Below, in pieces: positions 22,910 to 57,875 of a stretch of 64,000 bases of DNA. The position numbers were made by a program, and so were the translations under genes. Origin of the DNA: Bacteroidota bacterium (GTDB lineage: Bacteria > Bacteroidota > Ignavibacteria > Kapaibacteriales > UBA961). Below the pieces are notes generated by a model that worked only from the letters and a program-made list of their open reading frames with translations, searched no databases and was not told the origin of the DNA. The first letter of the stretch is position 1. Each line of letters starts with the position of its first letter. The DNA is taken from NCBI GenBank assembly GCA_049317525.1, contig JBMOIC010000010.1, positions 125 to 64,124 of the forward strand, read 5' to 3'.

Positions 22910-23062
22910 TGAATATTTTGTGACTTATATCATTAGAATGTGTCATTACATTGAAGATTTTTGCATGATAAATCTACTTTTTTTTGTTCTAAAACATTAA
23001 TTTGTTTAGGGCATTTTACTTTGATAATAAATACTATGTGTTATACCAATCGGGAGAATCAT

Positions 23063-26000
23063 ATGATTCGCAGATTAGGATTCTTTACAATGTTTTTGTT
23101 TTTGTTAATAACTGCTTGTTCAGTTCAAACAAAAGCACAAGTTCGATTCAATATTTTTGCACCTGAAACAAAAGCTTATCCTCAGATAAGAACTTTTTTT
23201 CAAACATTAGATAAAGATGATGCTCCATTGGCTGGATTAGATTCTAATGATTTTGATGTATTTGAAAATGGAATTAGAATTCCAAATTCAGCGCTAATAA
23301 AGCGTTGTTCATCTATTGTTGATGGCCCTGCTTTAAGTGTAGTATTGGTTATTGATAAAAGTGGATCGATGTCTGAACAAGTTGGCCAAACCCCAGATGA
23401 TACAAGATTCAAATTTGTTAAGATTGCTTCTAAATTATTTGTTCAGCAATTGAATTTTATTGATCCAACTGCAGTAGCCATTGTTTCTTTCGATGGCCAA
23501 TCTTACTTAGAACAAGATTGGACAAATAATCGCAATCAATTGCTTGCTGCTATTGATAAAATAGAATTAGGAACTGCAACTGCTTATGATCCCCCGCTAC
23601 TACACAAACAATGGGGCGCAATTAAGCTTTTAAGTGAAAGGCCTACAGAACCAGTAAAAAGAGTCATTATCTTTTTAACCGATGGAGAGCCTAATAGAAA
23701 GCCAACTGTAGATTCTATTCGTAAAGGATTACAAGATAATGGCATCGTTTTTTATGCTATTACAGCATTTACCGGTATGAATGCAGATTTAGCAAGATTT
23801 GCAAGTGAAACCGGCGGAGAATCTTTCGAAGCAAATTCTCGTGATGCTGCAGCCCAATTACAAGAAATTTATGCTAAGATTGCTACTAAATTGCAAGCAA
23901 AAGAAGTATGCTATCTTCAGTGGAAATCTCCAATGGGTTGTGATGATTCTAGTAGAAAAAGAAAAATTGATATAACGCTAAAAAAAGGATATAATATCAC
24001 CAAATCCTCTGAATATTTAGCCCCAGCTAGTAGTATTCTAAGATTTGACGTAAGCCCACCAATTTTGTCATTTGGAAATCCTCTTCCAAATACTCCAATA
24101 ACAAGCTCTGTAACCGTTACAGCTAAAACTGGACAAGTTACTTTAACTAAAGGCAAAGTTACATCTCCAGCAGGTGCTACATTTAAATTAACTGATTGGG
24201 ACGGATCTACTCCAATTACGATAGATTCTGGAAAAAGCAGGGTTTTTGCTGTAGAATTTACTCAAGGTAATGTATTAGATTTTAGACAAGGCACTCTGGA
24301 ATTAACTGGAACACCATGTAGCCCACCAATTCTTCCTTTGGTAGGAGGAACAGCTAGTGTAATTCTTGTAGACCCAATATCTTCCGAAGTAAGATCTACA
24401 TGTAATGATTTAACTATCTTATGGGCAGGTGTTGATTCTGCGCAAGAAGTTATTATTCAATACAGTTCTGATGATGGAGCAACATGGAATCTTCTTGCAA
24501 ATAATGCAACAGGATTGAAATATATATGGTCAGCAGATGAGTTGAAAAAACTAGATACAAAAGGAAAATTCCGTATAAAAGTTGGTTTGCCAAGTGCAAA
24601 AACATATGTATGGGCTAAACAAATTGGCGGTACATTATCAGATTCATCTGTAAGTATATCTCTTTCATCAGATGGATTAAATGCTTTTGTAGGAGGTTCT
24701 TTTGTTGGTGTAGGTACTTTCGATACAAATCAGATGTCTAGTGCAGGTGGTTCTCGAGATGGCTTTTATGCTCAAATTGATGTTTCTGGCAATGTTGTTT
24801 ATGTAAAAGGCATTGGTGGAACTTCCGAAGATCAAATCACTGGAATTGCAGCTGGGCCTGGTAAAGTTGCATATACAACTGGATGGTATATTGGTGATGC
24901 AACTTTTGGAAATCAACCAGGTTTGCAAGGCGCAATATCCAAAACAAAGGCAAGTGATAAATCCAAACGTAATTTCTTTATGGCCAGAATAGAATCAAAT
25001 GGCAATATGGTTATGGTTCAGGATTTAGGCCCAAGAGCAAATACTGCAGGAGAAGCATTTGGTGAACAAATTGCATATGATCCATCCGATAAGCATGTAT
25101 ATGCTCAAGGTATGTTCAAAGGAACTTTAGAAACTACAATTGCTGGAGTTCCAGTAAGAATTCAGAATAGAACTACTTTATGGCAACCATTTACAGCAAT
25201 TTTTGATGAAGCAGGTAATTGGCTAGATTTACAACCATCTAAAGTAGTTGGCAAACCGTATACTAAAAATACAGCTACAGACAAAGATGGCTGTATTTAT
25301 GAAACAGGTTCTTTTAATGGAACAATCGTTAAAGATCCAGGTAATAAGCTATTAACATCAGCTGGATTATCTGATGGGTTTGTTACAAAATTCTGTGGAT
25401 TACCTCCAAGTTCATCTGCAAGTCAAGTAAGTTTCCCATTGGCAAAAGCTAAATTGTATTCGGTAGATCCAAATCTACGTTTCAATATGGGTACTACTGC
25501 TGTTGGACAACCTAAAGAACAAACATTAAATACTGGTATTTGTAATGGTGGAAACCTAGATACATTTATTGATAGTGTTGGTGTGGATAATCCTCAGTTT
25601 AGTCTAAAAACAGTGCTTAATGGACGACTCTTCCCAGCTGTTAACTGCGATACTGTTCCTATAGAAGTATTATTCGATCCAACTTCTCCAGGTGAACATT
25701 GCGCTAAAGTTACTTTTTATGCATCTTGCTCTCCTATAGTATCTATGACAATTTGCGGAATTGGTGTTGAGCCTTGTACATATACATATACTTCAGACAC
25801 AGTGTTTGCGAATACTTTGGTAAACGCTAAGTCTCCCATGAAAATTAAAACAGCACTTTGTAATAAAAGTGGGATAATTATTGATGGTAAATTAAAATTA
25901 GCGGGTACAAATCCTGGAGATTATAAAATTGTAAGTGTCAATCCTGGATATGGCACAGCTTTGCCTTCAAGTGGTGATACTACAATTACAATTCGCCCAG

Positions 26001-27766
26001 GACAATGTTTAGAACTTGAAGTTGAATTTTCTCCTACAGCAACAGGAAAAAGGACTGCAATTATAGATTTAGGCCTTCCAGCTGATTGTGGCGCTCCTCG
26101 TATTCAATTAAGCGGAGATGGTATTTCTCCATTACAGGCAACAGTATCTAATGGAATTTGGGGCTGTGTACCTGTTAATGGTAAAGATCAAAAAGTAATT
26201 AAAATTAAAAATAATGGTGGTAGCGAAGCAACAATAGAATCAATCACTCTACAAAAGAATGATGGAACATTTACCGTTATTACTCCAACATTACCAATTT
26301 CACCATATAAACTTGGTAGCGGACAAGAATCTAACCTAACAATTGAATTTTCTCCAAAAACCGCAACATTAGGTCTGTGGGATTCATTATTAGTTAAAGC
26401 TTCTGCAGATAATCAAACAATTACAGTTGGTGGAAGACTTCAAGGTGATGGATGTACTGGCACATTAAAAGCAGATTCTAATTGCGTTGGAACTACAATA
26501 GTTGGTACCAATAATACTAAAGCTGATGCATTAATATTGAATAATACGGGCAATGCGCCTTTGAATGTATCTTCAATCACTATTGTTGGATCTACAGAAT
26601 TTGATAATTTAACTCCAGTTGCACCATTTACAATTCCAGCTGGTGGGAAGCAGATAATGTCTGTAAGGTTTACACCTCAATTTGTAGGTTATAGAAGCGC
26701 AACTGTCAATATTGTACACGATGGACCAAATGGCTCTAGCCAAGCAACTATTTGTGGAGAAGGTTTCTCTGCAGACAGTACAGTTAATTTTGGAACTATT
26801 TTAGTGTGTGAAACTCCTGGAGCAGTAATTCCTTATCCTAACTTAAGTAGTAATAAAGTGACAATTGATGCTTCTGTAGAAGGCACAGATAAAGATCAAT
26901 TTACATTATTACCATCAGGAAGTGTAGATATTGGTGCTGGCTTAACTAATAATTTCTTAATAATGTTTACACCGCAAAGTGCAGGTACTTTTGCAGCTAC
27001 AGTAAAGTTAGGTCAAAGAAAAATCAATTTGATTGGCAAGGCTATAACTTCTGGTATGAAAGTATATACTAGCCCTAATGATTATCAAAAAGTTATTCCA
27101 GGAAAAGCGGTCAATTTAATTGTAAAAGCAAAGATTGATTCTGCTATAGGCACAACGAATGTTGATACATTACAAGTTATTTTAAGCTATAATGCACAAA
27201 ACTTAGAATATTCTAATAAGTTGATCAGCAAAATTAATGGCTGGACATGGAATGCAGTTAGCAAGCCAAATAATATTGTGGTAAGCGGAAAAGGTATCAC
27301 TTCGATTCCTGGCAAATCTGATGTAGAATTGTTTGAGTTAGAATACAATGCGTATTTGGGTGATACCAATGTATTCAGTGTCGATGTTCAAGCAACAACT
27401 TCTACTCCTTTATCTAAATGCTTAATTATTAATACTGCAGGTTCTTCATTAACATTGGATAAGATTTGCTTCCAAAATGGACGCTTTATCCGTGGAAGTG
27501 GAATTGGATATGCATTAAAGCAAATTGGCCAATCCCCTGCTGTAGATCAAGCATCAATAGAATATAGCATTGGGATTTCAGGACAAACCACAATCGAATT
27601 ATATAATAGTATGGGACAAAAAGTACATACTTTATTAAATGGAACACTCCAAAGTGGATCATATGAATTATCTTTATCTACAGAGTCATTACCATCTGGT
27701 ATGTATATCTGTGTAATGAAATCAGGTCCATTCCAAGCTCAGCAACAATTGATGATTACCAAGTAA
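23063..27766 (+). CDS. large surface protein: N-terminal vWA domain, repeated Ig-like beta-sandwich domains, T9SS C-terminal sorting domain
   Basis: The SD GGGAGAA precedes the ATG at 23063. The signal peptide is MIRRLGFFTMFLFLLITACS. The vWA MIDAS is DKSGSMS...FLTDGEP. There are many about 100-aa repeats carrying the N-x-G-x-x-x-L-x-I motif. The C-terminal about 80 aa (IELYNSMGQKVHTLLNGTLQSGSYELSL...GMYICVM) is a Por secretion tail. Confidence 0.8.
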   Translation: MIRRLGFFTMFLFLLITACSVQTKAQVRFNIFAPETKAYPQIRTFFQTLDKDDAPLAGLDSNDFDVFENGIRIPNSALIKRCSSIVDGPALSVVLVIDKSGSMSEQVGQTPDDTRFKFVKIASKLFVQQLNFIDPTAVAIVSFDGQSYLEQDWTNNRNQLLAAIDKIELGTATAYDPPLLHKQWGAIKLLSERPTEPVKRVIIFLTDGEPNRKPTVDSIRKGLQDNGIVFYAITAFTGMNADLARFASETGGESFEANSRDAAAQLQEIYAKIATKLQAKEVCYLQWKSPMGCDDSSRKRKIDITLKKGYNITKSSEYLAPASSILRFDVSPPILSFGNPLPNTPITSSVTVTAKTGQVTLTKGKVTSPAGATFKLTDWDGSTPITIDSGKSRVFAVEFTQGNVLDFRQGTLELTGTPCSPPILPLVGGTASVILVDPISSEVRSTCNDLTILWAGVDSAQEVIIQYSSDDGATWNLLANNATGLKYIWSADELKKLDTKGKFRIKVGLPSAKTYVWAKQIGGTLSDSSVSISLSSDGLNAFVGGSFVGVGTFDTNQMSSAGGSRDGFYAQIDVSGNVVYVKGIGGTSEDQITGIAAGPGKVAYTTGWYIGDATFGNQPGLQGAISKTKASDKSKRNFFMARIESNGNMVMVQDLGPRANTAGEAFGEQIAYDPSDKHVYAQGMFKGTLETTIAGVPVRIQNRTTLWQPFTAIFDEAGNWLDLQPSKVVGKPYTKNTATDKDGCIYETGSFNGTIVKDPGNKLLTSAGLSDGFVTKFCGLPPSSSASQVSFPLAKAKLYSVDPNLRFNMGTTAVGQPKEQTLNTGICNGGNLDTFIDSVGVDNPQFSLKTVLNGRLFPAVNCDTVPIEVLFDPTSPGEHCAKVTFYASCSPIVSMTICGIGVEPCTYTYTSDTVFANTLVNAKSPMKIKTALCNKSGIIIDGKLKLAGTNPGDYKIVSVNPGYGTALPSSGDTTITIRPGQCLELEVEFSPTATGKRTAIIDLGLPADCGAPRIQLSGDGISPLQATVSNGIWGCVPVNGKDQKVIKIKNNGGSEATIESITLQKNDGTFTVITPTLPISPYKLGSGQESNLTIEFSPKTATLGLWDSLLVKASADNQTITVGGRLQGDGCTGTLKADSNCVGTTIVGTNNTKADALILNNTGNAPLNVSSITIVGSTEFDNLTPVAPFTIPAGGKQIMSVRFTPQFVGYRSATVNIVHDGPNGSSQATICGEGFSADSTVNFGTILVCETPGAVIPYPNLSSNKVTIDASVEGTDKDQFTLLPSGSVDIGAGLTNNFLIMFTPQSAGTFAATVKLGQRKINLIGKAITSGMKVYTSPNDYQKVIPGKAVNLIVKAKIDSAIGTTNVDTLQVILSYNAQNLEYSNKLISKINGWTWNAVSKPNNIVVSGKGITSIPGKSDVELFELEYNAYLGDTNVFSVDVQATTSTPLSKCLIINTAGSSLTLDKICFQNGRFIRGSGIGYALKQIGQSPAVDQASIEYSIGISGQTTIELYNSMGQKVHTLLNGTLQSGSYELSLSTESLPSGMYICVMKSGPFQAQQQLMITK

Positions 27767-30928: not shown

Positions 30929-31840
30929 ATGTTTAAAATAAAACAAACTCTTGTTATTTCATGTATGTATTGCGCACTTACTTTTCTAAGTACTTTACAT
31001 GCACAAGAAATTCAATTTCAAGTAAATGTTGATTTAAATAATATACCTTTTGATAGTAGAATAGATATTCAAAATCTGAAATCAGATATTATTAATTATT
31101 TATCGACACAAAAATATGCCGATCAAGATTGGGAAAAGCCTAAAGTTCCTGTAGATATTGGTATTACTGTTACTGGAAAAGCCTCAAATAATACATATTC
31201 AGCTATTTTAACAGTATTAAGCTATACTCTATTAGAAAATGGAGCAAAATCAGTTTTAATGAAATCAATCGAAAAAAATTGGTCTTTTGAGTATGCTCCT
31301 GGTGCAGCACTCTCATTTCAAAATAATAGATTCAATAGTTTATCCTCCCCTATTGATTATTATATGCTTACTGCAATGGGCTTATTTTTGGACACCTATG
31401 GAGAATTAGAAGGTACACCATTTTATGAAAAAGCAAAGTTAATTTGTCGTAATGGGGCTGCTGTGAATGCATCTGGATATACTATGACTCCCGACCCCTC
31501 TGTTCCTTCCAAAATTGGATTAGTAACTGAATTAACTGACATGGTATTTGATGACTTTAGAAAACTAATATTCTCCTATCATTTTGATGGTTTAGAGGCC
31601 CTAGAAAAAGATAAAGATTCTGGAAAAAAAGTAATGGCAAACATTATTACTTCTATGAAAACATTTAAACAAAAGAAAGTAACCATGAGAAGTACATTAA
31701 TGGATTATTTTTTTAATGCAAAATTCATGGAGATAGCAGATATCTTTAAAGGATATGATGACCCAGAGCTATTTACAAATTTAGGCATATTAGACCCCGC
31801 AAATAATAGCATTTATCAAAAAGCTCAGGATGATAGATAA
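30929..31840 (+). CDS. hypothetical secreted protein
   Basis: 303 aa. It has a clear signal peptide (MFKIKQTLVISCMYCALTFLSTLHA). No catalytic motif was recognised. Confidence 0.4.
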   Translation: MFKIKQTLVISCMYCALTFLSTLHAQEIQFQVNVDLNNIPFDSRIDIQNLKSDIINYLSTQKYADQDWEKPKVPVDIGITVTGKASNNTYSAILTVLSYTLLENGAKSVLMKSIEKNWSFEYAPGAALSFQNNRFNSLSSPIDYYMLTAMGLFLDTYGELEGTPFYEKAKLICRNGAAVNASGYTMTPDPSVPSKIGLVTELTDMVFDDFRKLIFSYHFDGLEALEKDKDSGKKVMANIITSMKTFKQKKVTMRSTLMDYFFNAKFMEIADIFKGYDDPELFTNLGILDPANNSIYQKAQDDR

Positions 31841-33403: not shown

Positions 33404-35548
33404 TTGAACATGAAACATATTTCAATAATAATCTTACTATTAGCTTTAATACAATGTTATAGAGTTGATGCTCAAGATACACCAGTGTGGTATTGGGGTG
33501 CTTATGCTGGTATAAACATGAATACTCATAATGCTAATTTTAAAGAAATACAAGGTTATCCAACTTGTTGTTTACAATTTGAGAATGGAACTGGTTTAGG
33601 TTATGCAATAGGTGGGCTTCTGCAAATTCCACTTAATAATTCATTGTATGCTGGCCTTAGATTAGGTATTCATAATCCCAGTGGCACTTTATTATCTAAT
33701 GAAAATATTGGTTTTCAATTTATCAGAAATCCCAATCCTCCATTTGATACAATTGGCGCTCCAATTACTGTAGAACATTCAATTGTTGCGAACTTATTAC
33801 AAATACATATTCAGCCTTCCCTACTGTATCAAATAAGTAATTCATTATTCTTATCTGCTTCACTTGGTGCTTATTATGTAATGAATGCAAATTTTGAACA
33901 AAAAGAAACACTCATTAGTCCATCAAATGCCACATTTTTAGATGGAAAAAAAATAAGAAATGAAGCAAATGGAATAATCCCAGAATATTCTCAGATTCTA
34001 TTAAGTGGTGATATTGGTATGAGCTATGATATACCAATATCTAAGCATATGTTTATTTCTCCATATATCTCTTATCATTTACCATTTAATTCTTTAAGCA
34101 GCTTAGATTGGAAAGTGAATACTCTACAATTGGGCTTATCATTCAAAAATGGTATTCTTCCTACAAAAGAAAAACTGTACATAAAAGATACTATCTATCA
34201 AAGAGATACTATTATTCATCAGATATCAGACATCTCGAGTATTCAGCTTAGAATAGATCATAAATCTTCAGAAATACAGGAAAAAGTTATAGACAATACC
34301 ATCATTCAAACTGTATATATTTCGGAATCATATATCAAAGAAGTGCCCATCATCAAAGCTAAAAAAGCACTTTCATTATCTATGCAAACCTCTGGTATAG
34401 ACAAAAAAGGTAATCGTACAAAAGACCCAACTATTCAGATCGAAGAAATTGAAACAACAGAAACTTTTCCTTTACTTCCTTATGTATTTTTTAATGAAGG
34501 CGAATATAAATTATCATCAACTGCTCAACATCTATTAAATAGCGATGAATCCACATTGTTTAGTGAAAAAGATATTCCTTCATCGACATTAAATATTTAC
34601 AAAGACATGTTAAATATTATTGCTTTTAGAATGCAATCTGAAAAAGGATCTGTTTTAATCATAGGAAATAATAATACTTCAGGTAAAGATACAATTGAAG
34701 GAATCAGTGAAAAAAGAGCTAATGAAGTAGCAAACTATTTACATAATACTTGGTCAATACCTAATTCCAGAATAAATAAAGTAATTGGAAAATTACCTAA
34801 AAAGCCTTCTAGCAATACAAATCCATTAGGACAAGCTGAAAATAGTCGAGTAGAAATTGAATCAAATTCATTGTCTCTGATAAAGCCAATCATTAAACAA
34901 ACAATTGAAATCTCGGCAAATCCTCCTTCTTTAGAGATTAATCTATTAGAAACATCTTCAGATTCATTAGCATCATGGGATGTATCTATCATGCAAAATG
35001 GCACTGTATTTCAAATGTATAAAGGTACAGGTAAAATTCCGAATCAACCATATTTATGGGATATACCTGTAAATAAATCTATTGTAAACGAGGAACCGAT
35101 TAAGGTAAAACTTCATGCTATAGATACAAATGGAAATGAGCAAACCATTGAAAAAGAGATTACATTACAACAACTTACTATTAATAAGAAAAGAGAAGAA
35201 TTTAAAGATGACAAGAAAATTGATAGATTCTCCTTATTGCTTTTTGATCATAATAGTGCTGAATTAGATAAAAAGAATGTAGATATTATTAATACTATTA
35301 AATCATTTATTTCGCCTAATTCAAAGGTAATAATAACAGGTTATGCAGATATCACAGGTGAGAAACTTTATAATCAAGAATTAACTAGAAAAAGATGTCT
35401 AGAAGTACAAAAAAAGTTAGATATACCTGATTCAAGAACTGATATCATTCCTATGGGTAGCGATATCCTTTTATATGATAATGATTCTCCCCAAGGCAGA
35501 AGTTATTCAAGAACGGTTCAAATTCAAATTGAAACACCAATACACTAA
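33404..35548 (+). CDS. OmpA-family protein: N-terminal OM beta-barrel-like domain plus tandem OmpA-like C-terminal module
   Basis: It has a signal peptide. Two OmpA-like peptidoglycan-binding domains are present (FPLLPYVFF..., and ...LLLFDHNSAELD...ITGYADITGE...RSYSRTVQIQIETPIH). It is a paralog of the C-terminal module of the 59434..62184 protein. Confidence 0.65.
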   Translation: MNMKHISIIILLLALIQCYRVDAQDTPVWYWGAYAGINMNTHNANFKEIQGYPTCCLQFENGTGLGYAIGGLLQIPLNNSLYAGLRLGIHNPSGTLLSNENIGFQFIRNPNPPFDTIGAPITVEHSIVANLLQIHIQPSLLYQISNSLFLSASLGAYYVMNANFEQKETLISPSNATFLDGKKIRNEANGIIPEYSQILLSGDIGMSYDIPISKHMFISPYISYHLPFNSLSSLDWKVNTLQLGLSFKNGILPTKEKLYIKDTIYQRDTIIHQISDISSIQLRIDHKSSEIQEKVIDNTIIQTVYISESYIKEVPIIKAKKALSLSMQTSGIDKKGNRTKDPTIQIEEIETTETFPLLPYVFFNEGEYKLSSTAQHLLNSDESTLFSEKDIPSSTLNIYKDMLNIIAFRMQSEKGSVLIIGNNNTSGKDTIEGISEKRANEVANYLHNTWSIPNSRINKVIGKLPKKPSSNTNPLGQAENSRVEIESNSLSLIKPIIKQTIEISANPPSLEINLLETSSDSLASWDVSIMQNGTVFQMYKGTGKIPNQPYLWDIPVNKSIVNEEPIKVKLHAIDTNGNEQTIEKEITLQQLTINKKREEFKDDKKIDRFSLLLFDHNSAELDKKNVDIINTIKSFISPNSKVIITGYADITGEKLYNQELTRKRCLEVQKKLDIPDSRTDIIPMGSDILLYDNDSPQGRSYSRTVQIQIETPIH

Positions 35549-43233: not shown

Positions 43234-44835
43234 TTAAAGGGAATATTTTAGGCCTAATGCTATAAAAATGCCACGTTCCTGAAAACCATTCCACAAATAT
43301 ACTTTTGAATTTAATATATTATCTAATCGAATATATCCTTTCATATTATATGGCAAAGCATAATTGCATTGCAGATTTACCATGAAATATGCTGGTAGAG
43401 AAATTGTAGACTGTTTATCAATTGATCTTTCGCCAATATACTCTGCAGAAAATACACTTTGTATATCATTATTCCACTTCATATCCCATGTAATTCCAGC
43501 TTTTATTGTCGGTAATAATGGAACTGAACCCTCAAAATCAGATAATTGACTATTAGTAAAAGCACATAATCCACTAAATGACATAGCATCATTGGGTTTC
43601 CATAATAACTCAGAGGAAAGTGTTAATATTCGAGCACCTACATATTCTATTGCATATCCAGAGTATGTATTTCTTTCTAATGAATTTGGGATATAAATAG
43701 GCATATCTGAACTGAGCCTATAATCAATTGATGTATGTATGCTTGTTTTGGCTGTTGGTTGATACATGAATGATGGTTTTATATGTATGATATCTCTTCT
43801 AAATGAAATTACTGAAGAATCGATGATATATGGATTATTCTGGACTATGTCTTGAAATGAATTTGCACTTAATCCGCTTTGTAAAAAGCCAAAAAGGGTT
43901 ATATCTTCAGACATTTGATAATGCGCATTATACGTAATAAGTACTCCACCTAATGTAATATCTAGAGAATTTGTAGCTGATTGAAGATCTACGGATATAT
44001 CTGATTGAATGTCATTGTATGTAAACTTAGTATATCCACCTAATTGTATCATATTATATGATGAGTTTTCTCGGAATGAATGTAAATCAACAGAAGCTTT
44101 AGCCCCATAATTCATTGTTCCAAATGGTCTTGAAATATCTAAAAATCCCATAATTCTTGCATCATTGGTTTGCTTCATATTTGTTTCGCATTGAAGCATA
44201 TTCCACTCAGCGCCTGTGCTGTAGGTATATTCCTGATAATTTCCTTTAGTATGTGCATGTGCTTTTACGCCTAGAATCGATCGATCTACAGAAGAATCCA
44301 TTCCAAAAAAGGAATAACCATTTCTGAATACCGATAAAGAAGATTCAGTTCTGCTGCCTCCAAAGAAAATGAACTTTTTAGGAGCATCATAACTTGCATT
44401 GATTGCTAGCTTTACTTTGCTATAATCAGCATTTTGAATATGCCCTTTACTTCCTTCATAATATCCTAATGCATCAACCGAATATCCTAATTCTTCAAAT
44501 GTATATAATCCAATTAATTTTGGAGTATAAAATTGGCCAAGTTCAGCTTGAACAGAGGTTGATGATATATTTTTTTTGAATGTACTTTTTGGTAATGTTA
44601 ACGCTGACAATAAAGGTGCTGGTATTTTTTCATTCGTATTTATTGAATCTAATTCTGTTTGTTTAAGTGATTGTGGTTTTAAAGGCTTTTGTTTAATTCC
44701 ACCTTTTATCTCTGCACTCGCTTTGCCAGTGATAACAAATTCTTGTAAATCAATAGGTTGAACAGCATTATTTTGACCTTGTTGTTGAGCACAAAGAACT
44801 ATAGGAAATACCATACATATTATGAATAGTTTCAT
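43234..44835 (-). CDS. hypothetical outer-membrane beta-barrel protein
   Basis: It has a signal peptide (MKLFIICMVFPIVLCAQQ) and an alternating amphipathic beta-strand pattern. No catalytic motifs were seen. Confidence 0.4.
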   Translation of the reverse strand: MKLFIICMVFPIVLCAQQQGQNNAVQPIDLQEFVITGKASAEIKGGIKQKPLKPQSLKQTELDSINTNEKIPAPLLSALTLPKSTFKKNISSTSVQAELGQFYTPKLIGLYTFEELGYSVDALGYYEGSKGHIQNADYSKVKLAINASYDAPKKFIFFGGSRTESSLSVFRNGYSFFGMDSSVDRSILGVKAHAHTKGNYQEYTYSTGAEWNMLQCETNMKQTNDARIMGFLDISRPFGTMNYGAKASVDLHSFRENSSYNMIQLGGYTKFTYNDIQSDISVDLQSATNSLDITLGGVLITYNAHYQMSEDITLFGFLQSGLSANSFQDIVQNNPYIIDSSVISFRRDIIHIKPSFMYQPTAKTSIHTSIDYRLSSDMPIYIPNSLERNTYSGYAIEYVGARILTLSSELLWKPNDAMSFSGLCAFTNSQLSDFEGSVPLLPTIKAGITWDMKWNNDIQSVFSAEYIGERSIDKQSTISLPAYFMVNLQCNYALPYNMKGYIRLDNILNSKVYLWNGFQERGIFIALGLKYSL

Positions 44836-47800
44836 TATCGGACCCTCCCATATTTCTTAAGTTTTGCTTGCGCTGCTTTTCCAAAATCATCATCTGCCCT
44901 AAGTGTTGATAGTGTTTGATAGACTTCAATTGCTGCTTCAATATTTTTTACTTGTTCATAGCTTTCGCCTAATCCAAGTAAAGACAATGTAAACCAATCT
45001 TCAATATTGCTAAACTTTTGTCTTACTTGATTAAATGCTTCTATTGCATTTCCTATTTCTTTTTGTTTCAGCCATGATTCACCTATTCTATATTGGGCTT
45101 CGGCTGCAATTGAAATATTTTCGAGTCTATCAATAAGCTTTCCAAAATGTACTCTTGCACTATCTAACATTCCTTTTGATCTATAGTACATAGCTATCTT
45201 ATATCTTGACTGATCACCATATTCAGAGCTAATAAACTTGTCAGCAATTTCTGTAAATAAACGTAAGGACTTAAGTGTATCTGTTAGTGACACAGCAATT
45301 TGGGCTCTTTCATATCCAGCTTGAGCTGCTGAATTGCTATTCGGGAATTCATCCATTAACTTGATAAATGCTGTGTCGGCATCCCTCAGTAATTGAGATT
45401 TTTGCTTGAGCAATCCTATTTCAAGTAATGCCAAAGGTGCAAATTCACTTTTTGAATATGATGCATACACATCTTTATAAGAAGATTCTGCTTTGGAAGA
45501 TTCACCCAAACTAGCATAACTTTTTCCTAAATAGAACAAAGCTTCGGCATTTCTTTCTTTATCATTATTCGATTTCAAAAACGATTCATATTCACTAATT
45601 GCGCTTTGAAAATTTTGTCTATTAAAAAAGCTCAATCCTTTATTCATCAGTAAATCTTTAGCTGCATCGGACTCAGGATGTGCTTTTACAAATTCATCTA
45701 CTATCTGGTCTGCTTCTTGATTTCTTCCCAAAAATTCCAAACAATACTGAATACTTTTAACTGATTCGCCCGCTAATGGTGATTGAGCATATGAGTTTTT
45801 AACAATTGAATATTCTGTGATTGCTTTTTCATATTGCTCCATATTATAATAAGCATCCCCAATAGTATAATGGGCTCTTGCACATAATGGACTAGATGGA
45901 TAAGAGCTAATCAAATCTTTTAAGTCTTCAATTGCTTCTGAATATTTTTTTTGCTGAAAATGCGTCCAACCTAATGAATATGATGCAGAAGGAGCCAAAG
46001 ATGACTTTGAATGAGATCGTATAAATGTCCTAAATGCTTGCAATGCCCCATCAAAATCATTTAATCTATATAAAGCTTGTCCATATTGATATGCAGAATA
46101 CTGCCCTTCTTCGGAATTTGGTAAGGCCTTATATGAGGCTTTATATGCAATAGAAGATTCTTTAAATTGTTTTTGGATATAAAATCCATCAGCCTTTCTT
46201 GCCCAACTTTCTGCTGCAAACCGTGAATCTGGATATTTCTTTAATAATGAAGAAAATGCCGTATTGCTTTTATTGAAATCTCTTGTCCTAAAATATGTCC
46301 AAGCTAATGCATACATACTTTCTTCAACTCTTTTGCTCTTTGGAAAATCTGAAATCAATTGATTGTAAAATTCTTCGGCATTTTTCAATAAATCTAATCT
46401 GAAATATGACTCAGCCAACCAAAACAATGCTTCATCTTTGCGTATATCACTTTTATGTTCACCTAAAAATGTAGAAAGTTCAATTGCAGCATCTTGATAT
46501 TGTTCATTTTGATGTAGTGATACTCCATTTTTCAATCTAATTTCTGCTAATATATTTTCTTTATTGGGTAATGAAATATCAGAAAGTATTATTGCATTTC
46601 TTTCAGCTGATGCATATTCTCTGGCTGCCTTACCATACATTTCTAAATCTAAAAATATACTTCCAAGTAATAGATTAATCTTAACAAGTACTGTTTTGTC
46701 GGTGGTTTCTCTTTCTGCTTTCTGCAAAGCTTTTTTTGCTATTTCTAAATCTTTATCTTCATAGGCAATTTGCCCATATTCTAATAAAGATTGAGATATA
46801 TATGGATATCCAATTTGTGCATTTAATAATGACAATTCTTTTTTTGCTTCTTCCCTTTTTTGTAATGCCTTGAGTACTATTGCATGATATAACTTTGCAC
46901 CTTGCTTAATCAAGGATTGATCATCTTGAACCGAATCAATTACTGTTTGATAATATTGTTCTGCTAATTGATACTCTTTTAAGTGTAGTGTATTATAGCC
47001 AGCAGCCAGCCATACTTGGGGTTTCAAAGAAGAGGAAGGAAATATTCGTATAAATTCTTTAGCCATACTATGGCTACTTTGGTATTGCCCCGATAATGTA
47101 AGTGCTTCTATACGCAAAAATTGTATTTCTTGATCAGATGCTTCAGAATGCACTTGTTTTTCATACATCAATCCAATTGAATCTTTTTGTGATATTCGAC
47201 GTACAATATTATGAGCTTGATCTAAGAATACAATTGCTGCATTAGGTTCTTTTAATGCTACTTTTACATTTGCTGCACGAATCGCAGAACTTAAAACTGT
47301 ATTACTATATTGATATCTACTTAATAGCTCAGCATATAAAACACCTGCTTGCTGAGATTTTAGCTCTCTTTCGGCTAATTGAGCCCTAAAATATAATGCA
47401 TCATCAGCTAATGAATGATCAGGAAATAGTTTTTGACACTCTGTAAGAAAAACTACCGACTGTTCTATATTCCCTAATTTCGCATGAGCTATACCTTTCC
47501 AATAAATTGCAGACCCACTTATATTTTTATAATAATTTTTATCAGTTTCTAATAGTTTATTAGCATTCATTGAAGCTTGATGAAAGTAATCTATAGAAAT
47601 TACTAAATCTCCTTTATGAAATGCTATTGCTGCACGCTCGAACCATGCAATGGGTATAAACTTAGAATTGTTTCTTTGTTGTATAAAATCAGCTAAAGAC
47701 TTATCTGCATAAGAATAATCAGCTTGCTCCCTCAAAATGATGGCTTGTAATATCCTAGCTTCGTCTGAGTATATCCCATCACTAAAATCTTTTAGGTATG

Positions 47801-47960
47801 TTCTTATATGTTCCCTTGATTCAATAAGATTTCCTTCTTGAAGCAAAGCATCAGTTTGCAATAGACTCTTAGGCCCATAAGAAATTTGTGGGTCTGCAAT
47901 TTGACTGTTTGCAATAACATGCACTAATGCAAACATTGCCGAAAAAAGCAATCGTTTCAT
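44835..47960 (-). CDS. large tetratricopeptide-repeat (TPR) protein, secreted
   Basis: About 1040 aa from the probable start MKRLLFSAMFALV. There are dozens of 34-aa TPR-like repeats with the W/L-G-Y-A-F-P pattern. The signal peptide lacks a lipobox Cys. Confidence 0.7.
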   Translation of the reverse strand: MKRLLFSAMFALVHVIANSQIADPQISYGPKSLLQTDALLQEGNLIESREHIRTYLKDFSDGIYSDEARILQAIILREQADYSYADKSLADFIQQRNNSKFIPIAWFERAAIAFHKGDLVISIDYFHQASMNANKLLETDKNYYKNISGSAIYWKGIAHAKLGNIEQSVVFLTECQKLFPDHSLADDALYFRAQLAERELKSQQAGVLYAELLSRYQYSNTVLSSAIRAANVKVALKEPNAAIVFLDQAHNIVRRISQKDSIGLMYEKQVHSEASDQEIQFLRIEALTLSGQYQSSHSMAKEFIRIFPSSSLKPQVWLAAGYNTLHLKEYQLAEQYYQTVIDSVQDDQSLIKQGAKLYHAIVLKALQKREEAKKELSLLNAQIGYPYISQSLLEYGQIAYEDKDLEIAKKALQKAERETTDKTVLVKINLLLGSIFLDLEMYGKAAREYASAERNAIILSDISLPNKENILAEIRLKNGVSLHQNEQYQDAAIELSTFLGEHKSDIRKDEALFWLAESYFRLDLLKNAEEFYNQLISDFPKSKRVEESMYALAWTYFRTRDFNKSNTAFSSLLKKYPDSRFAAESWARKADGFYIQKQFKESSIAYKASYKALPNSEEGQYSAYQYGQALYRLNDFDGALQAFRTFIRSHSKSSLAPSASYSLGWTHFQQKKYSEAIEDLKDLISSYPSSPLCARAHYTIGDAYYNMEQYEKAITEYSIVKNSYAQSPLAGESVKSIQYCLEFLGRNQEADQIVDEFVKAHPESDAAKDLLMNKGLSFFNRQNFQSAISEYESFLKSNNDKERNAEALFYLGKSYASLGESSKAESSYKDVYASYSKSEFAPLALLEIGLLKQKSQLLRDADTAFIKLMDEFPNSNSAAQAGYERAQIAVSLTDTLKSLRLFTEIADKFISSEYGDQSRYKIAMYYRSKGMLDSARVHFGKLIDRLENISIAAEAQYRIGESWLKQKEIGNAIEAFNQVRQKFSNIEDWFTLSLLGLGESYEQVKNIEAAIEVYQTLSTLRADDDFGKAAQAKLKKYGRVR

Positions 47961-48082
47961 AGATGTTTCGTGGGGATGGATATATGCTGCATTCCAAAAA
48001 TACAAATATCTTTAGTATTAAAAACACTGTTTTTTTAAGATACTAAGCAAATAATTTTTTTCTATGTAAAAATGTACAATAG

Positions 48083-53191: not shown

Positions 53192-53706
53192 AATTCACTC
53201 TTTAATAATTGTGTAATAATATCTTGTAATTCTTCATGTTTAAATTGTTTTTCAAAGAATTTGCGAATTTTTTTTTGATTATTAATCAGTAAAGTAGCTG
53301 GTAAAGCACCACTCCACTCACTATCAACTTTATCTATCCATTCATTTGGATTTTCAGCTTTTAATAACACTATCTCGGATTGAATATCTTTCTTTTTTAT
53401 GAAAGGAAGTAGAATTTTTTCTTTGTCTTGTATAAAATCCAAACTAATTAAAAGAACTTTTACTGATTGATTTTTATACTTCGCATTAATTTCTTCAAAT
53501 ATTGGTAATTCTTCAACGCATGGCTTACACCATGTTGCCCAAAAATTTATTATGTATAATGTATCATGAGTATTATGAAGCAAAGAATCAATTTGTGAAA
53601 AAGAGATAATTCTTCCTTGATTTTGGGCATTAATATTTGGAGTGCTATGGATAAAGACCCATGCCAATAAAGGTAGAAGCAAACTATAATGTACTTTATA
53701 TAGCAT
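53188..53706 (-). CDS. TlpA/ResA-family thiol-disulfide oxidoreductase
   Basis: It has a signal peptide. FWATWCKPC is the classic WCxxC motif. Confidence 0.75.
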   Translation of the reverse strand: MLYKVHYSLLLPLLAWVFIHSTPNINAQNQGRIISFSQIDSLLHNTHDTLYIINFWATWCKPCVEELPIFEEINAKYKNQSVKVLLISLDFIQDKEKILLPFIKKKDIQSEIVLLKAENPNEWIDKVDSEWSGALPATLLINNQKKIRKFFEKQFKHEELQDIITQLLKSEL

Positions 53707-56700
53707 TATTGTATCACAGTACGTTTAGTTTGCAAGCGGTCAAAATATTGTCTGATAAGAATTTCATAGTCTTTTGTATACCCTTTTCCTAAAGATCTAA
53801 GCACATCTTGCATCGCTTTATTTCTTCCTTCTGGAGAGTTAAGATTTAACTGTGGAGGACTTTTTACCGTGATGTCTTGTCCACTTCTGGATTCTCTGTC
53901 TTTTTCATAATCTCTTTCATTCATAGATCTAGAAGCATCCAATAACCTAGACAAAATTCTTTCTTGTCTTCTTCTAGTTTCTGGAGTGATAATTCCACTT
54001 TCCATATCAGCAACAATCTCTCGCATTTCATCTGCAATTTTCTTTAAGTCGCCTAAAGATTTTCTTTTACCAGTTGGATCAGTTTGTTGTTTGGCTAATT
54101 CTTCCATAGCTTGTTGAGCTTTACCTTGTTGTCCTGCTAATCGAGCTAATTGCTGTTGTTGTTGCGGAGACAAACTTCCATCTTGTCCAGGTTGTGGCAT
54201 TCCTGAATTAATCTGTTGTTGCATACCTGCCATTTTCTGCAATTGTTGCATCATGCCTCCACTGCCTGCTTTTGCTTGGCCCTGCCCTCCGGGATTATCA
54301 CAAGATCCATCACCTTCGCCTTTCATCTTATTTAAGGCATCTTGCATTTGGATAGATGCTTTATTTAATGAACTCATAGCAGCCATTTGAGATTGAGCAG
54401 CATTCGAAGGATTTCTTTGAGATAATTGTTCAGATGCTTTTTGCATTTCTTGCATAGCATTAGACATTTCTTTTACCATTTCAGGACTTACTTTTGTTGT
54501 CTTTTGCGCTAATTGCATCATTTGGGCAGCCATATTTGCTAATTGATCTTGCAATTGCGCTTGGTCTTGGGCTGCTTTTTGTAATTGATTAGAATTAAAA
54601 TCTAATGATTCTGTTTTCTGTTTTTGGGCTTCTTCTTGTTTAGACATACTTAAAGCATCTTGCAATGATTTTTGCATTTGCCTGATGGCTTCTTTATTCA
54701 TATTTTTTTTCATCTCTTGCTTTAGCTTTTTCATTTGCTTGGCAAAATTCTTAACATTTTGCGCAGCTTTTTTCTGCTTTTGCGCAGACTTATTCATATC
54801 CCCTTTTTGCATTTCATCAGAAGCTTCTTGCATTTCTTGAGATGTTTCTTGTTCAGCTAATTCTTCTTTTGCTTTTTCAAGCTCTTTCATGGGCATTTGT
54901 TGAGCAAGATCTTTCATTAATTGTTCAAGATCTTTAAGTTCTTTTGCCATATCTTTTAAGTCTTGCTGCAATGCTTTGTTTTCTAATTCATTAGCTTTTT
55001 TTTCTGCTTGATTAGATGGATTTGTGTTTTCCGTCTTTTTGGCCAATTGTTCTTGTTGTTCTGCTAATTTTTCAGCTCTTTTAAGCAAAGCATCTGTTTT
55101 TTGTTCTGCTTGTAAACGCTTTAAAATATTCATTGTTCTTTCAATTCCCTTCCTAAATTCTTCTTCATTGAATTTCATTTGTTTCATTGCTTGTTGAATT
55201 TGTTCAGGGCTTAATTCTTGCATGGCTTTTTGCATTTCTTCCATTGCTTTCCGCAATTCTGGAGAATTTACTTCTCGCATCAGTTTTTGAAGCTCTTTAT
55301 ATTGCTCCATTGTTTCTGGTGAAATCGCATTGTTATCCTGCAACTTTTCGGTGATATCTTGCAATTTTTTATCTATCTGATCCATCTTTTTCTGAAGATT
55401 TTCCTGCTTTTTCATCAGATTATCTACTTTTTTTGCGTCTTTCCAATCCATATTTTGTTGTTGCTTTAGCATTTCTCTTTGTAATTCATCCAATTCTTTA
55501 GAGATTTCTTTTGCTTCAGCTGCTGTTTTTTCCAGATCTTTTACTGCATTATCTTGTACTGAATCTGCATTAGACAATACTTCATCTAATGAAGGTAATC
55601 GAACACTGATAATTGATGTTCTTGAAGATTTTGGGCCGGTAATAATATCATTATCAATGATTTCACAATAGAATTCATATCGATCACTTGGGGCAATTCC
55701 AACTTTATTTATATCCCACATATATGGAATATCTGCGCTTACAGTACCACTTGGAATAGGAATACTTAGCGAGCTAAAACTTTTGGACTCTGGTGCATAT
55801 TTGGATTCAGCTAATCTATACCACAGTTTTAATGATGAAAACCCATAATCATCGGCTATTTGAAGAGAAATAGGTAATAATGCTTGTTCATTTACAGTAA
55901 TATCATGATTTGGCTCTATCAATGTAATAATGGGAGAATTGTCACGAATGGTAGTTATGGAATAATGGAGTGGCTCTTCATTTATTCTTCCATCTTTGTC
56001 TTTAATTTCGATATAATATTCACCATCTTTTTTTACTGTAAATCCTCCATTTGCAACCCTTGATTCTCCTTGTAATGCTATTCTAACAGTATCATAACTT
56101 TTGGCTTTACTGCCATTTACCGTATCTTTTTGATTATATGAAGGATACAATACAATGATTGAAGCTTTGCTTATATCTTTGCTTGAAACTACAGATAATC
56201 GAACGGTAGTACCAATAAGGCTTATGATATCTGCATTTTGTTCATTTATTGTTTTTGATGCTTGTTTACTATATGCTGGTGGTTGAACGGTTCCTGAGAT
56301 AGAACGTATCTGAGGTCTATCAATCACGGTGATTTTCCCAATGGCTGTTTGTACTGGTTCATTTAACCAGTCTGACATTCCATAAAACTCTACACTTTGT
56401 TTAAGTGATTCTATCTGATAGGTATATACATTAGTAGAATCTGCTTGCAATTGAAATTTTTCGAAGTTTTGCTGTTTACCTTGCTTTAGCATCAGAAAAA
56501 CAGAGGCAGGCATAGTTCCATGTACAGTGATAGAAATGCGTGCTTTTTCACCTCTTAATTGTTCTTTATTAAGGGGAGATATCGTTAAATAGAATGGCGC
56601 AGGTGGAACAAATGATGTATCATGATTCCAAAGCCTATACAATGAAGATTGAAGAGATTGAACGCCAACAATACTAATTGATGATATAACTATTGATAGT

Positions 56701-57203: not shown

Positions 57204-57875
57204 TTATCTAGTTAAAGCGTAAACAATAATGTTTGTACCAATTTTCAAGGAAATTTCACGTTTTTCATTTGTATCATGATGAATTTCTGGATCTGCCCAA
57301 CCATCACTTGGATTGGTTTCTACTGTATAGAACACACATAGTTTGCCATTATGAAAAAGGCCTAGTCCCTGAGGCATTTTTGCATCATGTTCATGTATTT
57401 TTGGCATACCATTTGGAAAAACAAAATGTGATGAATAAAGAGGATGATTAAAGGGTAAATCGATAAAATTTTGTGATGGAAACACCTTTTTCATTTCTTT
57501 ACGAATAGAAGCGTCCATGCCATAATCATCGTCAATATAAAGGAAACCTCCATGTTCTAAATATGCTTTTAGTCTAGCTACTTCATTATCTGAAAAACTA
57601 ACAGTACCATGACCTGTCATGAAAAGTATAGGATACTGAAATATATTATCAGATGAAATATCTACATATTCATATTTAGGTTCTACTTGAATAGTAGTAT
57701 ATTTTCTAATATATGCTAAAAGATTCACTTCAGAGGATTGATCATTATACCAATCACCACCACCTGAATATTTTACTCTTCCAATTTTAAGCAAACTATT
57801 TTGTTGTTGTGCTTGAATTGGTATTAAACATATCACTAATAAAAATGCAAAAAGCATATATCTGATGAATTTCAT
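57204..57875 (-). CDS. secreted DUF4159-like protein (class I glutamine-amidotransferase-like/ThuA-like fold suspected)
   Basis: The signal peptide is MKFIRYMLFAFLLVICLIPIQA. The motif is LFMTGHG...LKAYLEHGGFLYIDDDYG. The ORF track starts 21 codons earlier. Confidence 0.45.
   Translation of the reverse strand: MKFIRYMLFAFLLVICLIPIQAQQQNSLLKIGRVKYSGGGDWYNDQSSEVNLLAYIRKYTTIQVEPKYEYVDISSDNIFQYPILFMTGHGTVSFSDNEVARLKAYLEHGGFLYIDDDYGMDASIRKEMKKVFPSQNFIDLPFNHPLYSSHFVFPNGMPKIHEHDAKMPQGLGLFHNGKLCVFYTVETNPSDGWADPEIHHDTNEKREISLKIGTNIIVYALTR

Follow-up and report, generated by a model that had tools for sequence, protein, structure and literature searches.

A double-OmpA cassette shared by a predicted outer-membrane barrel protein and a PorE/CHU_0125-like propeller protein in a Bacteroidota genome

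Two otherwise unlike proteins encoded in a single 64,000-nt stretch of a Bacteroidota genome end in the same arrangement of about 380 residues, in which a PLLPYVFF strand is followed by a divergent OmpA-like domain, a modelled beta-sandwich and a second, canonical OmpA-like domain. We consider it probable that this arrangement is a portable peptidoglycan-anchoring cassette, fused long ago to unlike N-termini, and that of the two proteins p1 (the product of 33404..35548, + strand) is an outer-membrane staple while p2 (the product of 59434..62184, - strand) is a soluble periplasmic relative of PorE and CHU_0125. The stretch analyzed, referred to below as the window, covers positions 125 to 64,124 of the forward strand of contig JBMOIC010000010.1 (assembly GCA_049317525.1), and no further copies of the cassette were found in it besides those of p1 and p2.

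Results and Discussion

Two unlike proteins end in one collinear cassette

The open reading frames of both proteins are present as originally predicted, that of p1 encoding 714 residues from a TTG codon and that of p2 encoding 916 residues (Table 1). Since the homologues of p1 are all 712 residues long and begin with MKHIS, translation of p1 probably begins at the ATG at 33410, which would give 712 residues rather than 714. The motifs by which the original prediction had linked the two proteins could all be located: FPLLPYVFFN at residues 355-364 of p1 and FPLLPYVFFD at 522-531 of p2, EKRANEVANYLHNTWSI (p1 436-452) and EKRAQVIYNYLKNVWHI (p2 610-626) in the first OmpA-like domain, and RTVQIQIETPI (p1 703-713) and RTVQINIQTPI (p2 903-913) at the end of the second.

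A single collinear BLASTP alignment joins residues 316-714 of p1 to 478-914 of p2 (26% identity, E 2e-27), and comparison of the profiles of the two families (probability 100%, E 1.7e-70, 374 aligned columns) gives an alignment that is unbroken from p1 342-714 to p2 509-916. Both methods therefore agree on a collinear C-terminal module carried by two unlike N-terminal domains, though the predicted length of roughly 330 residues was too short: the module measures about 373 residues in p1 and about 408 in p2. Within it, the first OmpA-like domains of p1 and p2 match one another (E 1e-16), as do the second (E 2e-11), while the two OmpA-like domains of one protein are barely alike (E 0.04-0.06). 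Each OmpA-like domain thus resembles its positional counterpart much more than it does its partner in the same protein. A recent internal duplication of the OmpA-like domains was also considered and was rejected on these values.

It could be argued that any two OmpA-family proteins would resemble each other in this way, given an identity of only 26% and the weak match of the middle segments to one another when compared alone (E 0.04). These segments are nevertheless aligned within the profile alignment, so that collinearity extends past the OmpA-like domains, its 374 columns spanning the non-OmpA middle domain as well as the PLLPYVFF lead-in. Together with the pairing of OmpA-like domains by position, this unbroken alignment indicates that the similarity exceeds generic OmpA-family likeness, and the cassette profile is matched over its full length (positions 2-378) by each of the best 150 proteins listed. 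Merely generic similarity is already refuted by these observations, and we assign it practically no chance.

Two OmpA-like domains and a beta-rich middle segment had been anticipated for each protein, and the domain searches agree. Whole-protein scores against Pfam family PF00691 are 53.8 bits for p1 and 56.4 bits for p2 (gathering threshold 27.2), with two stretches in each, and profiles of solved structures match at both positions, the first domain of p1 matching Tpn50 (3oon, profile positions 397-483) and that of p2 matching Pal (4g4v and 5lkw). The middle segment is modelled as a beta-sandwich in both proteins; a Pfam search with the middle domains alone, at E up to 10, gave nothing but a weak PKD-like hint for p2 (E 0.024). 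The OmpA-sandwich-OmpA arrangement is not spanned by any of the solved chains that matched. Mean pLDDT of the AF2 models is 87 for p1 and 84 for p2, with a pTM of about 0.5 for both, and the models do not fix the placement of the domains relative to one another.

Table 1. Predicted features of p1 and p2, with coordinates in the window.
Feature	Residues	Coordinates	Strand	Assignment or basis
p1, whole ORF		33404..35548	+	Predicted OmpA-type outer-membrane protein: barrel, stalk, double-OmpA cassette
p1 predicted signal peptide, MNMKHISIIILLLALIQCYRVDA / QD, type I, without lipobox		33404..33472	+	Sequence reading, family N-termini
p1 predicted N-terminal outer-membrane beta-barrel	~29-251	33488..34156	+	AF2, Foldseek, PF13568 in homologues
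p1 beta-hairpin-rich stalk/linker	~258-340	34175..34423	+	AF2, lower model confidence
p1 cassette copy	342-714	34427..35545	+	BLASTP, profile alignment
p1 OmpA-like domain 1, divergent	344-487	34433..34864	+	Pfam fragment score, PDB profile match
p1 middle beta-sandwich	~490-598	34871..35197	+	AF2; without Pfam family
p1 OmpA-like domain 2, canonical	603-714	35210..35545	+	Pfam, PDB profiles, Foldseek, alignment
p2, whole ORF	916 aa	59434..62184	-	PorE/CHU_0125-like propeller protein, predicted periplasmic, with double-OmpA cassette end
p2 predicted signal peptide, MKRRIATLFGIAVICGLITIPVLA / NK, without canonical lipobox		62113..62184	-	Sequence reading, family N-termini
p2 PD40 beta-propeller	~70-366	61087..61977	-	Pfam, AF2 strand pattern, Foldseek
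p2 CRD-like beta-sandwich	~374-455	60820..61065	-	PorE/CHU_0125 models, homologue hit, AF2
p2 cassette copy	509-916	59437..60660	-	BLASTP, profile alignment
p2 OmpA-like domain 1	511-670	60175..60654	-	Pfam fragment score, PDB profiles, alignment
p2 middle beta-sandwich	~673-785	59830..60168	-	AF2
p2 OmpA-like domain 2, canonical	799-916	59437..59790	-	Pfam, PDB profiles, alignment

p1 resembles OmpA/OprF-type proteins with an extended periplasmic part

p1 has the predicted layout of OmpA/OprF/Omp38-type proteins, with a signal peptide (a helix at residues 3-18 in the AF2 model), a small N-terminal barrel and a periplasmic peptidoglycan-binding end, and its Foldseek matches include the OmpA barrel as well as the C-domains of OprF and Omp38. 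The proposal of an outer-membrane barrel is supported by the AF2 model, which contains about ten long antiparallel strands with pLDDT mostly >90, by Foldseek matches to the OmpA, Ail, OpcA and Pla barrels, and by the presence of PF13568 (OMP_b-brl_2) in many full-length homologues, p1 itself giving no match at E<=1.

Several features set p1 apart from these proteins. Its predicted barrel, of a type that PF13568 marks in many homologues, is larger (~220 residues). A beta-rich stalk of ~90 residues follows, and scanning this stalk by itself against Pfam (E up to 10) gave nothing. In place of one OmpA_C domain there are two OmpA-like domains flanking a beta-sandwich. Against the family Porin OmpA of Enterobacteria (NF008071) p1 scores 33.2 bits, below the cut-off of 277. 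In the picture we favor, p1 would act as an OmpA/OprF-type staple: behind the signal peptide the barrel would sit in the outer membrane, the stalk would extend into the periplasm, and the cassette would hold on, non-covalently, to peptide stems in the cell wall.

p2 is related to PorE and CHU_0125

The PD40 propeller proposed for p2 is recovered by Pfam (E 1.1e-29) and by Foldseek, which matches it to the propellers of TolB (3iax and 7mx5) and of S9 peptidases. There are five PD40-like repeats, three recognized by a strict pattern and two read by eye, and the five blades are counted from the secondary-structure pattern (five four-strand groups) rather than from coordinates. Behind the propeller lies a carboxypeptidase-regulatory-domain-like (CRD-like) sandwich, into which the match of the PorE model extends as far as residue 421 and that of the CHU_0125 model as far as residue 388, and a homologue of p2 (P0290) has a CarboxypepD_reg match. 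Ahead of the propeller, the AF2 model shows no more in residues 1-69 than the signal peptide, a single helix and a disordered segment. No canonical lipobox was found in p1 or p2, nor one conserved across the N-termini of either family, and both signal peptides read as type I.

Proteins combining a propeller, a CRD and OmpA_C are already known in Bacteroidota (PMC7192894, PMC5891637). PorE (PG1058 of Porphyromonas gingivalis) is lipid-anchored at its N-terminus and comprises TPR, a five-bladed propeller, a CRD and OmpA_C (PMC7192894). CHU_0125, the 'Pal-like' protein of Cytophaga hutchinsonii, has the same series of four domains; it was characterized through a defect in outer-membrane integrity and the loss of crystalline-cellulose degradation, and not as a component of a secretion machine (PMC5891637). 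p2 has the same propeller and CRD-like part, and a terminal OmpA_C with the same Asp/Asn/Arg ligand-binding residues. CHU_0125 and PorE are the best NCBIfam matches of its N-terminal half, at 129.5 bits for CHU_0125 (NF053607, cut-off 620, model positions 144-432 of 639) and 123.1 bits for PorE (NF052230, cut-off 600, model positions 130-476 of 648 only), and over residues 72-398 p2 shares 38% identity (E 2e-50) with a CHU_0125/PorE-like Mucilaginibacter protein, along the propeller of the latter and into its CRD. Unlike PorE and CHU_0125, p2 has neither TPR nor lipid anchor, and the single OmpA_C of those proteins is replaced by the series of OmpA-like domain, beta-sandwich and OmpA-like domain. 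It is this doubled OmpA cassette that is not already described, the combination of a propeller with OmpA having been reported before.

TolB consists of an N-terminal alpha/beta domain followed by a six-bladed propeller. The original prediction described p2 as in effect a TolB-Pal fusion, which in its strong form would mean a working fusion in which one polypeptide replaces the outer-membrane half of Tol-Pal. There is a likeness in the PD40-type propeller fold, for which Foldseek reports TolB 3iax with an rmsd of 4.5 over 286 columns, and in the OmpA-like domains, which are of the peptidoglycan-binding type found in Pal. The description is nevertheless too loose. p2 scores only 20.7 bits against TolB (TIGR02800, equivalog cut-off 343), over one stretch of ~77 residues, and 41.1 bits against Pal (TIGR02802, cut-off 125, with p1 at 30.1); it has five repeats rather than six blades, it lacks a lipobox, neither Pfam nor NCBIfam gives a match to the TolB N-terminal domain, and the S9-peptidase propellers match it as well as TolB or better. 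Furthermore, tolQRA adjoin p2 neither here nor in relatives, and Cytophaga has, alongside the gene for the related CHU_0125, separate tolA and tolB genes that give a different phenotype when deleted (PMC5891637). We therefore regard a working TolB-Pal fusion as very improbable, and place the N-terminal half of p2 instead with the PorE/CHU_0125 group.

In the picture we favor, p2 would be a soluble periplasmic relative of that group, with its five-bladed PD40 propeller and CRD-like sandwich fixed to the wall by the cassette, in which the beta-sandwich may serve as a spacer between the two OmpA-like domains. The propeller presumably grips an outer-membrane partner, conceivably the machinery of type IX secretion.

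Ligand-binding residues and the number of anchoring sites

In the crystal structure of PorE with peptidoglycan, the side chains in contact with the ligand are Asp576, Asn584 and Arg591, and through these Asp/Asn/Arg side chains OmpA_C binds diaminopimelate in the stem peptide (PMC7192894). The second OmpA-like domain of the cassette retains all three, as Asp649, Asn657 and Arg664 in p1 and as Asp845, Asn853 and Arg860 in p2, each invariant in its family; across aligned copies the Asp is found in 325 of 325, the Asn in 324 of 325 (one Ala) and the Arg in 325 of 325. Non-covalent anchoring to the cell wall is the most likely function of the cassette. The OmpA-like domains of MotB/PomB, MotY, TagL/TssL and ExeA fix larger periplasmic or envelope assemblies to the wall, and several such machine-associated anchors match the second domain of the cassette by profile. 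As described, those proteins differ in having a single OmpA-like domain, fused to inner-membrane or flagellar components.

The first OmpA-like domain, which opens with the FPLLPYVFF(N/D) strand, is less uniform. Its Arg is found without exception in the 334 copies aligned (Arg438 in p1; Arg612 in p2, where it and Asp596 are invariant in the family). The Asp is kept in 123 of 124 members of the PD40 class and is N, S or A in most members of the barrel class (Asn424 in p1) and all members of the VWA class, while the Asn site is not kept in the PD40 class, which has Lys there (Lys603 in p2). The cassette possibly anchors at two sites, the uncertainty arising because the first domain lacks part of the triad.

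These differences also permit a reading in which only the C-terminal OmpA-like domain binds peptidoglycan and the first is a degenerate copy put to another use, such as oligomerization or the binding of a protein partner or of a different envelope polymer, with the beta-sandwich serving that use rather than acting as a spacer. Apart from the substitutions at the Asp and Asn sites, such a reading is consistent with the score of the isolated first domain of p1 against PF00691 (26.3 bits, just under the threshold of 27.2, with that of p2 above it at 30.0), with an insertion of ~30 residues after strand 1, and with the invariant motif PLLPYVFF, which is not found in ordinary OmpA domains. However, the Arg that never varies is the one forming a salt bridge to the diaminopimelate carboxylate, and its retention, like that of the Asp in the PD40 class, is conservation at precisely the ligand-binding positions, which is hard to explain for an unused pocket. 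We take binding at one site seriously as an alternative, though only tentatively so.

The cassette is widespread and its fusions are old

The expectation that domains had been shuffled onto a conserved anchoring module was borne out by a survey of its relatives. The cassette profile matches 1,868 protein cluster representatives at E<=1e-30, and the cassette occurs behind at least five kinds of N-terminus: the barrel, PD40 with CRD, VWA with a third OmpA domain, VWA with WD40 and ASH (Ig), and DUF6588. A barrel is the N-terminus in 121 of 140 new top matches of the profile, and members of the VWA class belong to Desulfobacterales genomes. How far the cassette as such ranges across taxa is read from the source names of the matches. 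These observations establish the cassette as a reusable unit that has been widely redeployed. Identity between cassettes is 40-57% within an N-terminal class and about 30% between classes, and the nearest neighbor of a cassette is almost always of the same class. Such clustering by N-terminal class indicates that the fusions are old, and we propose that the cassette was joined long ago to different N-terminal 'business ends', each fusion having since become its own orthologous family. Every member is currently annotated just as 'OmpA family protein', and a literature search on tandem or double OmpA domains gave nothing relevant.

When public genomes were scanned with the alignment of the p2 family, full-length matches of the p2 type came from Kapabacteria, Ignavibacteria and Chlorobiota genomes; in Bacteroidia only the propeller half matched, with or without a single C-terminal OmpA domain.

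Gene context and a possible link to type IX secretion

The source genome appears to have type IX secretion machinery: within the window there are genes for a PorD-like protein, for a cargo protein with a Por_Secre_tail and for a protein containing a PorW/SprE-like stretch. With respect to the PorE family, whose members are required for type IX secretion and associate physically with its machinery, these genes are circumstantial evidence. This raises the question of whether p2 is the PorE equivalent of its lineage, that is, a dedicated type IX component anchoring the outer-membrane secretion complex, and not a general envelope-integrity protein. Besides these genes, the rank of CHU_0125 and PorE as top named families for its N-terminal half, the five-repeat propeller with CRD-like domain as in PorE, and the division of full-length and propeller-only matches between lineages all point in this direction. 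Set against them are the PorE score, which is far below its cut-off, the missing TPR and lipid anchor, and the reported phenotype of CHU_0125, which concerns the outer membrane and cellulose and not secretion. In none of the loci examined does the p2 type adjoin type IX secretion genes. More generally, distant homologues of p1 and p2 lie among unrelated housekeeping genes, synteny around both loci is held only among close relatives, and no conserved operon for p1 or p2 was found in the homologue loci beyond close relatives, so that gene context provides no functional support. On balance we think it rather unlikely that p2 is a dedicated PorE equivalent.

Bolder still would be to suppose that the cassette is a distinct, portable two-site anchor whose first domain, with its PLLPYVFF lead-in, its invariant Arg and a residue at the Asp site that differs by class, recognizes something other than what the second does, and that the p2 family is a type IX wall anchor. 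We consider this improbable. If it were true, the target of the first domain might be a modified or differently cross-linked stem peptide, a protein partner or the glycan strand. The sandwich would then determine the distance between two wall features that the cassette reads or bridges, and in Kapabacteria and Ignavibacteria the p2 family would fill the place of the missing PorE-type anchor that ties type IX secretion to the wall.

Significance

In Kapabacteria and Ignavibacteria, the outer membrane and machines such as type IX secretion are probably held to the wall by OmpA-type anchors that act non-covalently. The parts of the cassette all belong to known fold classes, and no new principle is involved. 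With five or more kinds of N-terminus and, judging from the source names of the matches, a spread over two or more phyla, the double-OmpA cassette is nonetheless a natural unit for annotation, and it lends itself to a simple test of whether a chain with two OmpA-like domains would bind the wall more strongly or more specifically than a chain with one.

Two proteins with different N-termini share a collinear C-terminal cassette

The two ORFs compared here, p1 and p2, lie in a window with a G+C content of ~33% and densely packed ORFs, most of those scanned matching housekeeping families. In the ORF list p1 begins at a TTG codon (33404..33412, + strand, is the region concerned). However, all full-length homologues within 87% identity are 712 aa long and start with MKHIS, and the ATG at 33410 is therefore the likelier start.

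A single BLASTP alignment joined residues 316-714 of p1 to residues 478-914 of p2 (26% identity, E = 2e-27), while profile-profile comparison of 48 p1-type with 65 p2-type sequences gave 374 aligned columns without a break, from p1 residue 342 to 714 and p2 residue 509 to 916 (probability 100%, E = 1.7e-70). The three motifs noted in the original prediction, which had called these regions collinear, are all found in both proteins in identical order, and the collinearity spans the middle segment too, going beyond generic OmpA similarity. When the block was split into three pieces, OmpA-like domain 1 of p1 matched domain 1 of p2 (E = 1e-16) and domain 2 matched domain 2 (E = 2e-11), whereas domains 1 and 2 within one protein were barely similar (E = 0.04-0.06). 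The middle pieces matched weakly alone (E = 0.04), yet lie inside the continuous profile alignment. These positional matches and the unbroken alignment indicate that the three-part unit, hereafter the cassette, predates the divergence of p1 and p2. No further copies were found in the window.

From the family alignments, AlphaFold2 gave models that are confident within domains (mean pLDDT 87 for p1 and 84 for p2), while a pTM of ~0.5 for each leaves domain placement uncertain. Pfam OmpA matched two stretches in each protein; scanned alone, domain 1 scored 26.3 bits in p1 and 30.0 bits in p2 against a threshold of 27.2, and solved OmpA/Pal domains were matched at both OmpA-like positions of both proteins in a profile search of PDB sequences. 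The p1 stalk and the middle domains of both proteins, scanned alone, matched no Pfam family. The predicted N-terminal barrel of p1 is supported by its modeled strands and by Foldseek matches in the PDB to the OmpA, Ail, OpcA and Pla barrels; p1 also matched OprF/Omp38/Pal C-domains. Likewise, the predicted propeller of p2 agrees with four Pfam PD40 stretches (E = 1.1e-29) and Foldseek matches to S9-peptidase and TolB propellers, with 3 of its 5 PD40-like repeats satisfying a strict pattern.

Features of the window and domain composition of p1 and p2
Feature	Position	Strand	Description
p1	33404..35548	+	714 aa counted from TTG
p1 signal peptide	N-terminal		
p1 barrel region	aa 29-251		~ten long antiparallel strands (AlphaFold2)
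p1 beta-hairpin stalk	aa 258-340		lower model confidence
p1 OmpA-like domain 1	aa 344-487		
p1 beta-sandwich	aa ~490-598		
p1 OmpA-like domain 2	aa 603-714		
p2	59434..62184	-	916 aa
p2 N-terminus			signal peptide, one helix, disordered stretch
p2 propeller	aa 70-366		five four-strand groups, five PD40-like repeats
p2 sandwich	aa 374-455		carboxypeptidase-regulatory-domain-like (CRD), then short beta linker
p2 OmpA-like domain 1	aa 511-670		
p2 beta-sandwich	aa 673-785		
p2 OmpA-like domain 2	aa 799-916		
VWA + ASH/Ig-like protein	22961..27766	+	1601 aa; weak C-terminal Por_Secre_tail, 28.6 bits (threshold 27)
PorD-like DUF4835 protein	30929..31840	+	151.6 bits, NCBIfam type IX PorD model (cut-off 170)
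TPR protein	44835..48005	-	1056 aa; five YbgF/CpoB-like stretches, TIGR02795 280 bits
DUF4175 protein	53706..57197	-	1163 aa
DUF4159 protein	57204..57938	-	

The cassette recurs behind several N-termini

p1-type proteins (barrel plus cassette, ~650-740 aa) gave 64 word-indexed matches, which cover at least 90% of p1 apart from a handful that are partial or more distant; many contain PF13568, and the few given names are Kapabacteria or a generic 'OmpA family protein'. Matches to p2 exceeded 3,400, the best 120 of which (44-98% identity over 92-100% of the length) come from Kapabacteria, Ignavibacteria, Chlorobiota and 'Bacteroidota' metagenome-assembled genomes. When one genome was scanned for each species, the full-length matches to p2 carried Kapabacteria, Ignavibacteria or Chlorobiota labels, or vague or evidently wrong labels for that group, while Bacteroidia proper (Mucilaginibacter, Bacteroidales, Sphingobacteriaceae) had the propeller half only, in some cases together with one C-terminal OmpA. 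Several genomes with full-length p2 orthologues are labeled 'uncultured Hyphomicrobiales' (L004, L005, L006, L014, L018, L021, L040) and another 'Patescibacteria group' (L020), almost certainly through wrong automatic taxonomy of Kapabacteria/Ignavibacteria-like bins.

A cassette-only profile searched against 1.84 billion cluster representatives matched 1,868 at E <= 1e-30, and all of the best 150 of these matched its full length. New proteins among the best 150 numbered 140: 121 barrel-type, 3 PD40-type, and the others fragments or other architectures, including VWA plus a third OmpA plus cassette (~950 aa), VWA-WD40-ASH/Ig-cassette (1410 aa) and DUF6588-cassette (~785 aa). The ~950-aa VWA proteins (P0185, P0194 and relatives) derive from Desulfobacterales/Desulfobacteraceae metagenome-assembled genomes, and the cassette therefore reaches beyond the Fibrobacteres-Chlorobi-Bacteroidetes group. 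Within an N-terminal class, cassettes share 40-57% identity, against ~30% between classes, and the nearest neighbor of a cassette nearly always belongs to its own class; because they group in this way, the fusions are old and stable. The domain shuffling originally proposed is upheld, and it is not recent.

A Chlorobiota genome (L062, 2246..7122, + strand) encodes a 648-aa cassette ORF with a short, unassigned N-terminus; its overlap with the stop of a 977-aa ORF is 4 bases, and no NCBIfam family matched the latter. This pair may be a two-gene form of a larger architecture.

Putative peptidoglycan-binding residues differ between the two OmpA-like domains

When the PorE OmpA_C domain was crystallized with a stem peptide, diaminopimelate was seen to be held by the Asp576, Asn584 and Arg591 side chains, and according to the same paper OmpA, Pal and PomB conserve these residues (PMC7192894). 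We surveyed these positions in 338 aligned cassette copies from 326 proteins. In domain 2 the triad is kept almost without exception (Asp 325/325, Asn 324/325 with one Asn-to-Ala, Arg 325/325 aligned copies), and this domain therefore very probably binds peptidoglycan. The domain 1 pocket, judged by its residues, appears conserved but altered. Its Arg is kept in 334/334 aligned copies; the Asp site holds Asp in 123 of 124 PD40-class proteins (D596 in p2), mostly Asn, Ser or Ala in the barrel class (N424 in p1; Asp in only 14) and Ser or Ala in the VWA class, and the Asn position is Lys in most PD40-class proteins. Domain 1 may also bind peptidoglycan, which would give two-site anchoring, or it may accept a variant ligand or serve some other purpose.

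p2 is related to PorE and CHU_0125

The original prediction read p2 as a TolB-Pal fusion. We reject this reading: p2 scores 20.7 bits against the TolB model (cut-off 343) and 41 bits against the Pal model (cut-off 125), and it has no lipobox, nor is one conserved across the N-termini of its family. The top NCBIfam matches of its N-terminal half are CHU_0125_OmpA (129.5 bits, cut-off 620) and T9SS_PorE (123.1 bits, cut-off 600), both Bacteroidota propeller-OmpA_C envelope proteins. A Mucilaginibacter protein from the genome scan, 38% identical to p2 residues 72-398 (E = 2e-50), also has CHU_0125 and PorE as its top matches. PorE is described as a lipoprotein that combines a five-bladed propeller and a CRD with TPR and OmpA_C domains (PMC7192894); CHU_0125 is described as TPR, PD40 and OmpA_C, and mutants lacking it have impaired outer-membrane integrity and make about six times as many vesicles (PMC5891637). 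Both have a single OmpA_C and a TPR, whereas p2 has the doubled cassette and no TPR. Given these differences, the lack of a lipobox and the scores below cut-off, we place p2 as a relative of this group belonging to neither named family.

Gene neighborhoods and hints of type IX secretion

Neither p1 nor p2 lies in an informative operon. p1 is part of a tight same-strand run, headed by the PorD-like DUF4835 gene and continuing with a beta-eliminating lyase, a 4HBT thioesterase, p1, isocitrate dehydrogenase (icd) and CTP synthase (pyrG); this order recurs in two relatives' contigs, L082 and L083 (p1 38-43% identical), but is absent at the locus of P0037, a more distant homologue. p2 is flanked by a biotin-carrier-like gene and, on the other side, a phosphoglucosamine/phosphomannomutase-type gene, an order partly kept in one relative and absent in another. 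On their downstream side, p2 and the phosphomutase gene are closely followed by a DUF4159-DUF4175 pair, which in the same order also follows the p2 orthologue in contig L084.

From its C-terminal tail, the 1601-aa VWA protein is probably a cargo of type IX secretion. Over its first ~450 residues it shows homology to P0311 (24% identity, E = 2e-29), a protein of 1410 aa encoded by another organism, in which the double-OmpA cassette takes the place of the secretion tail; related N-terminal halves thus carry either a secretion or a wall-anchor C-terminus. Part of the large TPR protein is similar to PorW/SprE, a lipoprotein of type IX secretion (91 bits, cut-off 250). Together with the PorD-like gene, these two proteins suggest a type IX secretion system in this genome, which p2 may specifically serve.

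A probable portable wall-anchoring unit

All the parts of these proteins are known folds, and proteins joining a propeller to OmpA have been described before. The OmpA-sandwich-OmpA unit, and its recurrence in different architectures and phyla, seem not to have been described, since Pfam and NCBIfam returned for the cassette only models with a single OmpA domain or an unrelated architecture, and a literature search on tandem or double OmpA units found none. The original observation was correct and is extended here. The best-supported reading is that the cassette is a portable wall-anchoring unit. On p1 it would make an OmpA/OprF-style staple joining the outer membrane to peptidoglycan, while on p2 it would tether a PorE-like scaffold in the periplasm to the wall, with the propeller holding a partner.
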